A stretch of 64,000 bases of DNA from Gammaproteobacteria bacterium (GTDB lineage: Bacteria > Pseudomonadota > Gammaproteobacteria > Steroidobacterales > Rariloculaceae): NCBI GenBank assembly GCA_963665575.2, contig CAXXDW010000002.1:71936-135935 (forward strand). The letters run 5' to 3'. Of the stretch, positions 21,301 to 37,776 are shown piece after piece (positions within the stretch are counted from its first letter, which is position 1; the number at the start of each line of letters is the position of its first letter). Position numbers and translations under genes: made by a program. The notes under the pieces were generated by a model. It made no database searches. It was not told the origin of the DNA and saw only the letters and a program-made list of their open reading frames with translations.

Positions 21301-22065
21301 GCAACGGCTTCGAACTGGCGCTGCGCACCGACGCGATGCAGGTGCGCACGGATTCAGACTCGGCGCCGGGGCTCGCAAGCTCCACGGGCGACACCGGCCG
21401 GGTCCGGGCGCTGCTTGAGGGCTCGCGATCGTTCGCCCTGGGCACGGGCCGCTCGCTTGAGCCGACCGTGGAGTTCGGGCTTCGCAACGACTCCGGCGAC
21501 GCCGAAACCGGCAGCGGCGTCGAGCTCGGGCTCGGCGTGCGTTACTCCGATGCGGCGCTCGGGCTGAGTGTCGAGGCCCGCGCCCGCGGCCTCGTGACCC
21601 ACCAGGACGCGAACTACGAAGAGTGGGGCGCCTGGGCGACGGTCAGGATCGATCCGGGCGACGACGGCCGCGGCGTCTCGCTGTCGCTGTCGCCGAGCTG
21701 GGGCGTGGCCGGCAGCGGCATGAACCGGATCTGGAACTCAGGCTTCGGCGGCGGTTACGGGGCGGGCTTCGGGCGCGGCTACGGCGGCGCCCCGGGCTAC
21801 GGCGGCACGTCCGGCAATCAATTCGACACGGCCGGTCGGCTGACCGCCGAACTCGGCTACGGCGTCGGCGCCTTCCAGGGGCTCGGCCTCGGCACCTGGT
21901 ACCTCGGCCTCGACCGGGGCCGGCCAGGACGCGCAACGCTTGCGCCTCGGCCGCCGCTGGCAACTCGGCACGCAACTGCACATGAGCGTCGAAGGCGCCC
22001 GCAACGAGTACTGGCTGCTCGATCCGGACCACTCCATCAGCGTCGGCGGGCTCGTGATCTGGTAG
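15324..22065 (+). CDS. Giant surface protein: 4 cadherin-like beta-sandwich, 3 FN3, 2 cadherin, SRCR, Calx-beta, C-terminal autotransporter-like barrel; +1 frameshift near 3' end
   Basis: LSDDA(A/T/R)LxAL repeats; FN3 (WSPPDNTGRP, YDVQxRATN); NNAPEF and DYE cadherin motifs; SRCR (EGRVEV…WGAVCDD…VVCRQLG…DDMQCEG…GVRC); Calx-beta (TVNYATQDGTA). Removing one G from GGGG at 21916-21919 gives …LRLGRRWQLG…ISVGGLVIW* with TAG at 22063-22065. Start uncertain. Confidence 0.85.
20547..20696 (+). repeat. 30-bp in-frame tandem repeat x5 (GWPSSGRGxx) with internal palindrome
   Basis: ggytggCCCTCCtctgGGAGGGg… units. Confidence 0.9.
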
Positions 22066-22135
22066 CGCGCGAAACGGGCGCGGTTCCCCAGGAATCCAAA
22101 TTGCCTTCCTGGCGCTGCGTGCTACGCTGGTGCGC

Positions 22136-22391
22136 ATGTCGCCGGAAATGTACACGATCATCAGCGTCGCCATAGGTCTTGCGGCGCTCATCCTGAACGG
22201 CCAGCGCGGCGTGTGGGAATTGCGCAAGGAGATAATTGGCCTGCGCAAGGAAATTACCTACCTGCGCAAGGAAATCGCGGTGGTTCGTGAACAGATTGCG
22301 GCGCTCGCAGAGCGCGTGGCCCCGCCTGGAGGGCGTCATTCTCGGTCCCCGCGGCTTTGCTCGCGAAACCGGTACGGGTGAGCCCGCGTAG
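22136..22391 (+). CDS. MSPEMY-family TM + coiled-coil protein, copy 1 (+1 frameshift at CCCC 22320-22323)
   Basis: MSPEMYTIISVAIGLAALIL…LRKEI heptads…ERVA/RLEGVILGP; paralog of 34572 and 36145. Confidence 0.75.
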
Positions 22392-22655
22392 CGAGACTTT
22401 CGTACTGTCCAGCGGGCACCAGGTCCGGTCATCCACGTTAAGCGACAGAGCACCCTCCACCGTTATTGTGAATGCATCGGCGCTGGTTCCTGCCTTGGGT
22501 GCGGCCCAGGATCAGCCTACCGAGGACGGATCAGAAGTCCGCGTATGGGTCGTCTATACCCCGGCGCTTCTCCGTTTCGCGAATCCGGACCAGTCACTCT
22601 AACCTTGAGTGTCTACATTGAATACACTGGATTCGAACTACGGTCGGAGCAAGAA

Positions 22656-22922
22656 ATGCGTATCGAGACGGAAATAAAAAAGTGGGGCAACAGCCTGGCA
22701 TTGAGGGTAACCGGCGCCATGGCCGAACTACCTCGATTCAAGCCCGGTACGCGGGTTACCGTCGACGTGAGCGGGGACGGATTTGTCGTCAAGCGTGCGC
22801 AGGGGCGGATCGGAAAGTTCCGCTTTCCCCATGATGAAGCCGCGCTGTTGGCGGAAATGACTGCGGAAAATTCACATGCGGATTTGCTTGCAGATCCGGT
22901 CGGTCCCGAGATCGGCGACTAG
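22656..22922 (+). CDS. mazE: MazE/AbrB-family antitoxin
   Basis: MRIETEIKKWGNSLALR…; directly upstream of a PemK/MazF toxin. Confidence 0.9.
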   Translation: MRIETEIKKWGNSLALRVTGAMAELPRFKPGTRVTVDVSGDGFVVKRAQGRIGKFRFPHDEAALLAEMTAENSHADLLADPVGPEIGD

Positions 22923-23282
22923 ATGGCCGCGCTGGCCTATGTCCCCGAACGGCAGGACATCGTTTGGCTCGACTTCGAGCTGACCAAGGGCAAGGAGATC
23001 GGCAAGAATCGGCCAGCGCTCGTGTTGAGCAGTCGCGACTACAACAGCAGGGCGGGTCTGCTGATCTGTTGTCCGATCAGCACCAGCATTCGCGGCGGGT
23101 CCACGGAAGTGCCGATCGCCCATCTTGACCAGCCTACCGGCGTTGCCGCGAACCTGGTCCAGACCCTGGCCTGGAGGGAGCGAAAGGCGCGAAGGATCGC
23201 TGCTGCGACGTCTGAGGAGTTCAGGTCGACCTTGTTGAAGCTGTTGCCGTTGCTGGGCGCTCTCGACATTCCTGGCGACTGA
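22923..23282 (+). CDS. mazF: PemK/MazF endoribonuclease toxin
   Basis: YVPERQDIVWLDF…GKEIGKNRPALVLS…YN…CCPIST. Confidence 0.9.
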   Translation: MAALAYVPERQDIVWLDFELTKGKEIGKNRPALVLSSRDYNSRAGLLICCPISTSIRGGSTEVPIAHLDQPTGVAANLVQTLAWRERKARRIAAATSEEFRSTLLKLLPLLGALDIPGD

Positions 23283-23416
23283 CGACCTCGGCGCCACCGA
23301 CCGGCGGGCCACGTCAGTCGCACAGAACCACTTGATGCCGTACGTATGCGCCTGCGCGAGGAGAACGAGCTGCGCGAGGCGTATGGCCAATGACCGAGCG
23401 AATCTCCCACCACTGC

Positions 23417-23491
23417 TCAAGAACACCGATAGGCGGCGATATCTTCCGGCGTTTGCAGAAATTCGCTGGCCCGATGAATCTTGATTGGCAT
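23417..23491 (-). pseudogene. Fragment of addiction-module antidote (HI1420-like), copy 1
   Basis: MPIKIHRASEFLQTPEDIAAY, then truncated. Confidence 0.55.
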
Positions 23492-23588
23492 CTTGTTTCT
23501 CCCACTTGTAGGCATTTCAGTTTCCGGTTATTTGATTGCATTGCTAGCATTGCGTAAATTGTCGCTACGGACCTGAGAGGAGCCGAGA

Positions 23589-23833
23589 ATGGCGAGCATT
23601 ACGATCCGAAATATCGACGACGAGGTGAAGACACGGCTACGTGTGCGCGCAGCACAAAACGGCCGATCCATGGAAGAGGAAGCCCGTCGCATCTTGCGCG
23701 AAGCGGTCCGGCGCAAGCACGACTCGCAAGATCTCGCGAGGCTTATCGGTGCTCGGTTCGGGGGCCTCTTGGTGGCGTGGAGCTCGAGTTGCCGCCGCGA
23801 GAGCCGGGTCGCGAGCCGCCCATTTTCGACTAG
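23589..23833 (+). CDS. fitA: FitA-like ribbon-helix-helix antitoxin (frameshift in G run ~23760-23764 reads it through into VapC)
   Basis: MASITIRNIDDEVKTRLRVRAAQNGRSMEEEAR. The paralog at 36667 shows the normal C-terminus, which here ends at TAG 23831-23833 in another frame. TGCTAGCA palindrome upstream. Confidence 0.8.
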
Positions 23834-36432: not shown

Positions 36433-36479
36433 CTGGACTTTCGTATCGTCCATCGGGCACCAGGTCCGGTCATCCACCG

Positions 36480-36593
36480 TCAGCGACAGAGCAGTCTTGG
36501 ATCGTCCGTCTCCTCAATGGGGGCGTTCAGGTAGGCGGCGATATCGTCCGGCGTTTGCGGCAGTACGCTGGCCCTACGAATCTTGATTGGCAT
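36480..36593 (-). pseudogene. Fragment of addiction-module antidote (HI1420-like), copy 2
   Basis: MPIKIRRASVLPQTPDDIAAYLNAPIEETDDPRLL. Confidence 0.55.
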
Positions 36594-36666
36594 TTCAGTT
36601 TCCGGTTGTCCGATTGCATTGCTAGCATTGCGTCGATTGTCGCAACGGAACTGAGCGGAGCCGAGA

Positions 36667-36909
36667 ATGGCGAGCATCACCATCCGAAACATCGACGACG
36701 AGGTGAAGACACGGCTACGTGTGCGCGCAGCACAAAACGGCCGATCCATGGAAGAGGAAGCCCGTCGCATCCTGCGCGAAGCGGTCAGGCGCAAGCAATA
36801 CTCGCAAGATCTAGCGACGCTTATCGGCGCTCGGTTTGGGCTCTTGTGTGGAGTGGAGTTCGAGTTGCCGCCTCGAGAACCGGGTCGCGAGCCGCCCCTT
36901 TTCGACTAG
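36667..36909 (+). CDS. fitA: FitA-like RHH antitoxin, copy 2 (cognate VapC deleted after 4 codons)
   Basis: Paralog of 23589. Followed by ATGATCCTGCTG at 36920, then a junction to the parE 3' sequence. Confidence 0.85.
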   Translation: MASITIRNIDDEVKTRLRVRAAQNGRSMEEEARRILREAVRRKQYSQDLATLIGARFGLLCGVEFELPPREPGREPPLFD

Positions 36910-37016
36910 GCAGGCGGCGATGATCCTGCTGCTGCCGAACGCATGCACCAGGTCGGTCGATTCTCAACGAGATGCTGCGCTGGGCGAACGAGCTGCGCGA
37001 GGCGCATAGCTTGCGA

Positions 37017-37391
37017 CTATGCGAGATCGTCCAGGTCGAGTAATAGAGCAACGGCCAGAGCTTTCATGGTGCTGAGCGTCCCCTGCCGGTTCCCGCGCTC
37101 AAGCTGCGACAGGTAAGCCGCGCTGATGCCGGCGCGTTCGGCCAGTTCCTTGACGCTGAGACCGCGGTATTCGCGCCACACCCGTACGGTGTTGTCGCCA
37201 TCAAGAATGCGGTTGGCATAGGCGGCCGGAATCAGCTCTTCTTCACCCGCCGCCAGGCGACGCCTGGCCGTATCGTATGCCTGTACATCGGCCAGGTCTT
37301 CGGCGGCTTTGGTCAGTTGTTCGTACTCTTTGAGCGGCAACACAACCATACGCTCGCCGCCCGGAGATTCGATCACTTGCACGCGTGGCAT
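37017..37391 (-). CDS. XRE/HTH antitoxin
   Basis: VRVWREYRGLSVKELAERAGISAAYLSQLERGNR. Confidence 0.88.
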   Translation of the reverse strand: MPRVQVIESPGGERMVVLPLKEYEQLTKAAEDLADVQAYDTARRRLAAGEEELIPAAYANRILDGDNTVRVWREYRGLSVKELAERAGISAAYLSQLERGNRQGTLSTMKALAVALLLDLDDLA

Positions 37392-37403
37392 GACGGCAAT
37401 TCC

Positions 37404-37640
37404 CTATTTGTAGATGCTTCCGCGAGGGCCGACATCAAGTACCTGCATGACGTCTTGCTGCACCTCGAAAATGACTCGCCATCCACCGACCCGCAGTCGA
37501 TAGCCCTCGCGACCTCTCAGTTTCTAGCGTGCCGGGCGTGCGCATGAGGATCAGCCGCATAGTCGTCAATTCTGGCACGAACCCGGCATTGCTCGTTGGC
37601 CGACATTCTGCGCAGCGCGTGGGGCTCTACGTCAACATCG
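37404..37640 (-). pseudogene. relE: Frameshifted RelE toxin
   Basis: …ALRRMSANEQCRVRARIDDYAADP, frameshift, then KLRGREGYRLRVGGWRVIF…VLDVGPRGSIYK*. Confidence 0.78.
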
Positions 37641-37776
37641 CAGCCGAAGGCGTGTCGTCGTCCATCGATTCCCGCCAAGCCGTCCACGGCTTCGAGTCCT
37701 TCCTGGGGCGCTTCTGACGAGCGCCAGGCACCGTTGCAACTGGCGCGATAGCGAGCCACCTGATCGGTGTTCTGGC

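Follow-up and report, generated by a model that had tools for sequence, protein, structure and literature searches.

The stretch of DNA considered here (the window) comprises 64,000 nt of the forward strand of contig CAXXDW010000002.1 (71,936–135,935; assembly GCA_963665575.2), from a gammaproteobacterium that GTDB places in the Steroidobacterales, family Rariloculaceae. Its genome, hereafter G000, is a metagenome assembly of 3.78 Mb in 10 contigs and is 95.4% complete. The host is likely a sponge symbiont; a small share of the sequence is found in metagenome runs, the three listed being one viral and two sponge metagenomes. Set among backbone genes for a giant adhesin, an S8 peptidase, a cytochrome c, a dehydrogenase, an ankyrin-repeat protein and a 3502-aa polyketide synthase (PKS) are two arrays of toxin-antitoxin (TA) genes, island 1 (22047–25374) and island 2 (33681–38210), ~ 11 kb apart. 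Both also contain a small transmembrane (TM)-coil gene, T, and the recurring linkers e, a and L; v denotes a vapC tail. We compared the islands with each other, with four congeners (G001 to G004) and with a member of the same family (G198), and on balance favour the view that they are paralogous copies of one ancestral array, that island 2 is composite, and that the copies have since decayed differently through deletions at short repeats.

Features are on the plus strand unless stated otherwise, and primes mark broken genes. Island 1 opens with the in-place copy of a (22047–22081), which consists of the last 19 nt of the open reading frame (ORF) of the giant adhesin gene (15309–22065; cadherin-like, fn3, SRCR and Calx-beta domains in Pfam), ending ..GGLVIW with the stop at 22063–22065, plus 16 nt of flank. 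Behind it are T copy a (22136–22381), which as assembled here is frameshifted by 1 nt near 22320, and an internally deleted relic of an M12B/reprolysin-type metalloprotease (22474–22596), which matches residues 193–224 of a G198 protein and is followed by a weak match to residues 410–422 (E 0.26). Intact mazE (22656–22922) and mazF (22923–23282) come next, then an uninterrupted junction of e1 (to 23393) with L (23398–23433) at 23352–23433, and a minus-strand fragment of a HigA-type antidote (TIGR02684; residues 1–24, 23429–23500). The ribbon-helix-helix (RHH) gene fitA reads through into fitB/vapC (PIN domain, 23844–24266; together 23589–24266), its frame having been lost near 23771, upstream of the old stop at 23831–23833. 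A gutted T copy (24283–24575) retains the T upstream region and ATG (24283–24322), v (24318–24367) and the T tail (24545–24575); for the 177 nt between v and the T tail (24368–24544) only weak similarity was found, 78% over 41 nt to the sequence preceding e in G004. Intact parD (24634–24900) and parE (24897–25211) precede a long e relic (25243–25347, within an element spanning 25243–25374) that abuts the last codons of a minus-strand helix-turn-helix (HTH) gene (25345–25374).

Logan contigs from four runs of two studies (X4, X5, X7 and X8, of which X4 is possibly the window's own sample) were compared with positions 21000–39000, and a junction was counted as bridged when at least 31 nt were covered on each side. 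Extra bases at 21916 and 22320 are absent from the contigs of runs X5 and X7. Without the base at 22320 the frame of T copy a would be restored, and without the one at 21916 the giant adhesin ORF, frameshifted in this assembly, would end at 22065.

Island 2 has more modules and fewer intact pairs. At its left, vapB1' (33826–33975, without its N-terminus) and vapC1' (33979–34059, only 27 codons from the start) match the first vapBC pair of G003, and vapC1' is fused to a second copy of a (34053–34087). An intact mazE (34127–34393) is followed by mazF' (34394–34508), cut at GCGA and frameshifted, by L and an intact T copy 2 (34572–34817; together 34505–34817), and by an intact parD whose partner parE' (46 codons, to 35277) is fused to relic e2 (parD 34878–35144; whole segment 34878–35395). 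The sole intact pair of the island is vapB (35420–35641) with vapC (35644–36039), an element that extends to 36047. Beyond it, 36048–36432 holds possibly the last 25–30 nt of e (a weak match), L (36079–36113) and an intact T copy 3 (36145–36432). Then come a minus-strand antidote fragment (residues 2–40, 36483–36599), an intact fitA (36667–36909) with the first four codons of fitB (36920–36931), and, behind fitB', the end of parD (to 36945), the tail of parE (to 36963) and relic e3 (to 37016). The remaining genes are on the minus strand: an intact Xre-HTH antitoxin (37017–37391), a ParE/RelE-family toxin split over two frames (relE', 37404–37700), and a second small gene with a TM segment and heptad repeats (37777–38070) that contains 21-nt tandem repeats and in G004 is flanked by the S8 peptidase and cytochrome c genes. 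Its heptads read RFDSIDR/RFDAIDR, longer congener copies end ...ARVEGHLFG, as in T, and its position varies among congeners.

The TA gene names were first given in an earlier note (the sequence-only reading), and they agree with Pfam and NCBIfam matches and with congener homologues. Above the Pfam cut-off are PemK (64.7 bits), FitA RHH (75–77), PIN (48–54), ParE (41.3) and HTH_3 (41.9), as well as PF04014 for the VapB encoded at 35420–35641 (43 bits). MazE (17–18 bits vs 24.7) and both copies of ParD (TIGR02606; 36.5 vs 46.2) fall below their cut-offs, and these two names rest on weak hits plus position. The antidote fragments align to an intact TIGR02684/PF21716 protein of G001 (56.5 bits in Pfam, 60.5 in NCBIfam), and an intact 86-aa copy of relE' in G004 matches PF05016 (33.7 bits). 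Judged by their domains, the modules would be type II TA systems of the MazEF, ParDE, VapBC/FitAB, Xre-ParE/RelE and HigA-type antidote kinds.

Self-BLAST and a repeat finder show that the two islands have ~ 10 DNA segments in common, at 74–94% identity and all in direct orientation, as the sequence-only reading had proposed in describing both as built from the same modules. The shared segments include mazE with the 5' part of mazF (22616–23038 and 34087–34508; 93%, E 2e-180), the T tail with parD and the 5' part of parE (24555–25033 and 34798–35277; 94%), the antidote fragment with fitA (23430–23855 and 36532–36931; 86%), the parE tail (25156–25190 and 36930–36963; 91%), v (24318–24367 and 35998–36047; 90%) and a (22047–22081 and 34053–34087; 89%). 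T is matched between 22100–22353 and 34536–34779 (80%), between 22100–22452 and 36109–36493 (74%) and, within island 2, between 34506–34819 and 36079–36434 (76%). Linker L recurs at 23398–23433, 34505–34540 and 36079–36113 (89–91%), and e pairs 25266–25338 with 35275–35347, 25306–25374 with 36972–37040, and 23352–23387 with 36975–37010; the linker positions given in the earlier note agree with two families from the repeat finder. Two blocks of island 2 are colinear with island 1: a left block (34053–35347: a, mazE-mazF', L, T2, parD-parE', e2) and a right block (36079–37040: L, T3, antidote', fitA, the parD and parE tails, e3), with the HTH gene beyond the latter. BLAST placed the modules nowhere in the 3.78-Mb genome outside the two islands, the sole exception being one fitAB homologue at 68%. 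This covers, for the genome, the search for more islands that the earlier note had recommended; all four congeners have the modules, in other orders.

The apparent shuffling can be examined at the joins between modules. Three-way comparisons support the earlier observation that these fall on short common strings: GCGA at mazF'|L (4 nt), GCTG at fitB'|parD' (4 nt), GGC at parE'|e (3 nt), ATG where the T start meets the vapC tail (3 nt), GAACGCATG at parD'|parE tail (9 nt), CG at vapC1'|a (2 nt), and a single nucleotide at a|mazE (C) and at L|antidote' (T). For seven of the eight in-window junctions the sister island has both parental points, in unchanged order; for example, mazF ... e1-L and parE ... 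e are preserved in island 1, and L-T-antidote' in island 2. Because the parental points are colinear, these seven are read as deletions of 232–1435 nt, which leaves vapC1'|a as the only ectopic join. A ninth junction, an alternative join of the kind that the earlier note had suggested looking for, is present in another sample. A contig of run X8, from the other study, connects 36532 directly to 36912 at a 10-nt repeat, AGGCGGCGAT, and so skips 379 nt that include fitA; the same process thus appears to be visible today. Six of the nine junctions have 3–10 nt in common and three have 1–2 nt. Colinear paralogues in the same orientation, with short repeats at the parental points, are the pattern by which duplication followed by microhomology deletion would be recognised, and the islands show it apart from one 50-nt piece. 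The description of a recombination-shuffled array therefore stands in its common modules and short-string junctions, but not as a free shuffle, since seven of eight junctions have colinear parental points.

Their matches show the recurring linkers to be relics, in part of gene ends and in part of upstream DNA, and not dedicated joints; we read them as passive. Linker a is the adhesin gene end described above, and L is the stretch directly upstream of T; a diverged L also lies behind a in island 1. In eight aligned copies of e from four genomes the downstream limit is always its stop codon, next to three different neighbours (L, the HTH gene end and the vapB leader), and the upstream limit differs in every copy. 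The longest e frame (56 aa, in G001) matches 14 of the 301 genomes of the order, and the match is to the C-terminus of ORFs of 719–4540 aa in G198 and one other genus. The giant G198 protein has leucine-rich repeat (LRR) and fn3 domains and a weak dockerin match below the cut-off; it ends ...DEDLKAMLRRANRLREEFS, and an M12B metalloprotease gene lies directly behind its gene. In the window, 25243–25335 is 68% identical to this C-terminus (E 5e-7), and 22474–22569 matches the metalloprotease from behind the giant gene (66%, E 4e-7). Together these matches identify e as what remains of the 3' end of a giant LRR/fn3/dockerin-like gene that has been lost. The e copies show no clear sign of coding constraint (variable columns per codon position 8/2/8 in five copies and 8/3/6 in seven). 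An e-like stretch elsewhere in the genome (G000:C3:1183912), within an lptE-like gene, was rejected as a chance similarity.

The earlier note had seen no integrase or attC site in the sequence. The genome lacks an integron integrase (17 matches to TIGR02249, the best at 60.7 bits vs a cut-off of 265) and the linkers lack an attC-like fold: eight single-strand e-L folds, covering both strands, have z scores of -0.81 to +2.43 vs shuffles, core motifs not having been searched systematically. No Rfam family reaches its threshold on 21000–39000, where a lone snoRNA model match (35.7 bits vs a gathering score of 100) was taken as chance.

The T protein has a membrane helix (MSPEMYTII...) at its N-terminus; the heptads that follow vary in number, and the ...ARLEGVILGPRDF... 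tail (ARLEGVILGP) is conserved. Among 8000 scored candidates from a set of 5.8 billion proteins, 161 relatives were found at E ≤ 0.001, nearly all without a Pfam family, and a protein atlas places T only in unnamed clusters. Homologues at one Rariloculaceae locus and two Dehalococcoidia loci have no TA neighbours, so TA genes are no necessary companions of T, a small gene in its own right that the arrays have repeatedly acquired. The homologues in Dehalococcoidia metagenome-assembled genomes have the same N-terminus, and their similarity suggests exchange across phyla. When metagenome contigs were scanned with the T alignment, one of 191 stretches was confirmed; its contig is 1,038 nt long. 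A candidate sigma-70-like promoter immediately ahead of the T start codon, with a leaderless mRNA, was dropped; a consensus scan of 33600–38300 gave no promoter-like sites.

Matches to island 2 DNA occur in six of 41 related genomes, namely G000, all four congeners and one other member of the family. All four congeners have the same backbone and, at the same intergenic spots, different sets and orders of modules; mazEF was not found in them. Three congeners lack island 2 altogether, its site measuring ~ 22 nt in G003 and G001 and ~ 190 nt in G004, and its edges in G000 (33681 and 38210) show no target duplication. In G003, 4306–4542 (vapB1-vapC1) and 4868–6019 (vapB2C2, e, L, T) are contiguous, and in the window their counterparts flank the 1,287 nt of the left block, which indicates that an island-1-type block is nested inside a vapBC tandem of the G003 type. 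Over e3, HTH and relE', the right end of island 2 matches the island-1 position of G004 at 93% identity.

Synonymous divergence (dS) between the island copies is 0.137 for mazE, 0.144 for parD and 0.203 for fitA, with 8–9 synonymous changes each; the orthologues differ by 0.20–0.24 from G004 and by 0.35–0.49 from G003. The similar values for the three antitoxin genes are compatible with one age, at low power. The parDE copies of G000 are 94% identical to each other vs 86% to the G001 copy. These values would be fitted best by a duplication that took place in this lineage shortly after it had separated from G004, and import of island 2 from a close strain is possible. The suggestion that one tandem duplication plus deletions explains the islands is thus compatible with the similar dS values, but L-T, e and parDE-derived pieces each occur twice in island 2, and so more than one duplication is required. 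A further argument against a single duplication, drawn from the 74–94% spread of identities, was withdrawn; the antitoxin dS values are similar.

The history that we consider probable would begin with an ancestral array of type II TA operons alternating with T in variable intergenic spots. Island 2 would be an ectopic composite copy that only this lineage has, set between the ankyrin gene and the one that follows it, and made up of a tandem vapBC array of the congener kind, an island-1-type block nested in vapC1, and a second such block on the right. After copying, each island would have lost different parts through RecA-independent deletions between direct repeats of 1–10 nt, with additional losses probably by homologous recombination between repeated T and e pieces. 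Differential decay of this kind would produce the appearance of shuffling.

The decay is biased. Only one of the six pairs in island 2 is intact, and four consist of an intact antitoxin (mazE, parD, fitA, HTH) beside a broken toxin; vapB1'C1' is cut on both sides. Island 1 has intact mazEF and parDE, and a fitA that is out of frame and reads into fitB. The ratio of nonsynonymous to synonymous divergence (dN/dS) between the antitoxin copies is 0.18–0.26, and the island 2 antitoxins look constrained as well as intact while their toxins have been destroyed. Toxin-first loss is the expected tolerated route of TA loss. The island 2 antitoxins may also cover the toxins of island 1, in the manner of anti-addiction modules.

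Several points count against the history given above. The three junctions with an overlap of only 1–2 nt are at chance level, and the 50-nt vapC tail at 24318–24367, inside the gutted T copy, lies outside both colinear chains. The doubled pieces of island 2 imply at least two copying events; with about eight deletions also needed, a single unique history of the arrays could not be derived. Estimates of dS and dN/dS rest on just 5–9 changes per class per gene. The T genes are mosaic between copies and genomes, their pairwise identities yielded no usable tree of copies, and this mosaicism means that gene conversion blurs all dating. Finally, gene-tail direct repeats around single cassettes in three congeners hint at an insertion process beside decay.

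This last point leads to the main rival, insertion with long target duplication, which Nobusato et al. reportedly described in 2000 for restriction-modification (RM) units. Applied here, a TA operon would land behind a gene end, and 40–130 nt of that end (the adhesin tail, e or the T tail) would be duplicated on its far side. The duplicated tails would then act as portable RecA homology moving cassettes about, with linkers as insertion footprints and decay as secondary. We regard this account as unlikely, though not negligible.

The best examples come from relatives. In G003, a perfect 40-nt direct repeat (8266–8305 and 10033–10072), corresponding to the last 13 codons, the stop among them, of an outer-membrane-type gene, flanks a 1.7-kb hipBA, which looks like a recent insertion of this type; a 93-nt e-L repeat (85%) also lies on both sides of two vapBC pairs. 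A 122-nt T tail repeat (93%) surrounds parDE in G001, and a 106-nt one (90%) surrounds a HigB-like gene in G002, where the last 107 nt of the adhesin gene also occur twice (13092–13197 and 16252–16358; 72%) with the S8 peptidase gene between. That peptidase gene is on the opposite side of T compared with the window. Within the window, e lies behind mazEF, parDE and vapBC, and its constant downstream limit beside three different neighbours and the uninterrupted e-L junction at 23352–23433 also favour insertion. That e-L stretch aligns with both G003 repeats at 83–86% but is not an orthologous empty site.

Furuta et al. (2010; PMC2853133) define long target duplication by an insert of < 20 kb without mobility genes between direct repeats of > 30 bp, and note that the repeats of RM units may overlap the 3' end of a neighbouring gene. 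The congener cassettes resemble that account, with addiction-type units, no mobility genes, repeats over a neighbour's 3' end, and five repeats of 40–122 nt around single cassettes in three congeners. The mechanism as described there concerns RM systems, however, and no single-copy target at the same site in an insert-free genome was found here. A strict pair of empty and filled states at one orthologous site was found for no cassette, and the process is accordingly kept as the main rival. Other observations also oppose it. Island 2 is not bordered by a duplication, no two copies of e share an upstream limit, and the same tails would result if T had been duplicated in tandem and had then lost its 5' part. 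In the window itself only the repeated L-T and e copies are of this kind, and an integrase adjoins the G003 array.

That integrase is the starting point for a second rival, in which a tyrosine integrase acting in trans builds up integrase-less cassettes in tandem at a specific site, as in cis-mobilizable elements (CIME) or integrons, with e-L as the attachment site. We consider this improbable. In its favour, a P4-type tyrosine integrase in G003 (2805–3983; domains Arm-DNA-bind_3, Phage_int_M and Phage_integrase) stops 53 nt short of one e-L repeat, another e-L copy follows 1.55 kb on behind two vapBC pairs, all modules in the window share a single orientation, and G000 has three homologues of the G003 enzyme (70, 59 and 49% identity). 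These homologues are on other contigs, however, and the e and L copies are confined to the two islands. The G003 integrase, the only one situated beside an array, itself lies outside the repeat-bounded unit and has no tRNA gene nearby; no tRNA or tmRNA target is present in the window or in four relative loci, and the limits of e vary among eight copies with no constant core. A Pfam scan of the window's 28 larger ORFs gave no tyrosine recombinase. The integrase independence claimed by the sequence-only reading agrees with this last result, but is unproven given the G003 integrase so close to an e-L repeat.

Integron arrays offer a further comparison, the Vibrio superintegron being a chromosomal integron cassette array that carries TA cassettes. 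The window likewise contains small TA cassettes in one orientation with recurring short sequences between them. The differences are that no IntI is encoded, what recurs are relics of gene ends that do not fold like attC, and the cassette limits vary.

An assembly artefact, with repeats of a mixed-strain metagenome collapsed or chimerically joined, is very improbable, because contigs bridge most junctions and several recur in congeners, although the genome is a metagenome assembly, single-base indels vary between runs at 21916, 22320, 23305 and 34479, and the homologous region is on short contigs in two congeners. Short-read contigs from several runs of the two studies bridge most junctions with zero mismatch, and the paralogous segments differ by 6–26%, too much to collapse. 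Run X4 bridges a|L*, mazF-e1-L-antidote', the left edge of island 2 with vapC'|a|mazE, parE'|e2, e2|vapB, v|L3, the GAACGCATG junction and e3|HTH; X7 bridges T2|parD, and X5 covers parE-e-HTH'-S8 at the right end of island 1. No bridge for mazF'|L2 is among the contig pieces listed, and fitB'|parD' has just 30 nt on one side; some bins have little or no depth in X7 and X8, which counts neither for nor against the assembly. The a-T, T tail-parD, e-HTH, e-vapB and vapC-e-L-T junctions recur in the independently assembled congeners.

The rest of the window contains other repeats, mobile elements and TA genes. The adhesin gene includes five 30-nt tandem repeats (GWPSSGRGV units, 20508–20698) shortly before its predicted autotransporter-like end, and a further vapBC pair, identified in Pfam, lies outside the islands at 29722–30409. 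A 35-nt unit is repeated five times in tandem (39429–39644) just ahead of a DUF6152 gene (39543–40046), running into its start. An insertion sequence (IS) element at 41795–43411 contains a DDE_Tnp_1 transposase gene (41995–43356) between 25-nt perfect inverted ends (41795–41819 and 43387–43411), and is adjoined by a TacA-GNAT (TacAT-type) TA pair in the region 43534–44440. The PKS gene, on the minus strand at 50291–60799, encodes KS, AT, DH, MT, ER, KR and ACP domains and a second KS, and a phosphopantetheinyl transferase gene adjoins it; we presume that the enzyme resembles the sponge-symbiont 'sup'-type PKS.

How do these arrays compare with chromosomal TA clusters described before? A review of chromosomal TA decay (PMC2654758), which covers the ccdO157 and hok/sok copies of E. 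coli, describes much that is similar: several TA operons in flexible regions, toxins broken by deletion, frameshift or rearrangement, and relatives intact elsewhere. What differs is that here two paralogous arrays lie 11 kb apart in one genome, that the sister copy keeps the parental state of most scars, and that a small TM-coiled-coil gene without a known family is interspersed in the arrays. The same review attributes to Saavedra De Bast et al. (2008) the idea of anti-addiction modules, in which a chromosomal antitoxin could neutralise the toxin of a similar TA copy. Island 2 MazE, ParD and FitA would suit such a role, with 93–94% amino-acid identity to the island 1 antitoxins; in this case both copies are chromosomal and the protecting copies have no toxins of their own. 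We found no description in the papers searched, supplementary files apart, of twin TA arrays of this kind or of long target duplication applied to TA operons.

The twin arrays are a clear example of known processes, and of fairly ordinary genome decay rather than a new mechanism. Their value is in the detail, as the movement and death of chromosomal TA operons are poorly documented at base-pair resolution. Most scars in one island have their parent, still undeleted, in the other, and so the path of decay is open to direct reading: toxins are lost first, at short repeats, whereas antitoxins are retained. We tentatively raise a larger possibility, to which we assign a low probability. TA operons of this genus may spread without a dedicated recombinase, inserting behind gene ends with a 40–130 nt duplication, RecA then passing cassettes between hot spots via the tails; island 2 would have turned into an 'antidote bank' of antitoxins alone (mazE, parD, fitA and the HTH antitoxin), which would neutralise the toxins still intact in island 1 and release the host from addiction to them. 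If the tail duplications are indeed insertion footprints, 'insertion with long target duplication' would extend from RM to TA systems, and the orphan antitoxins would provide a natural test of the anti-addiction idea.

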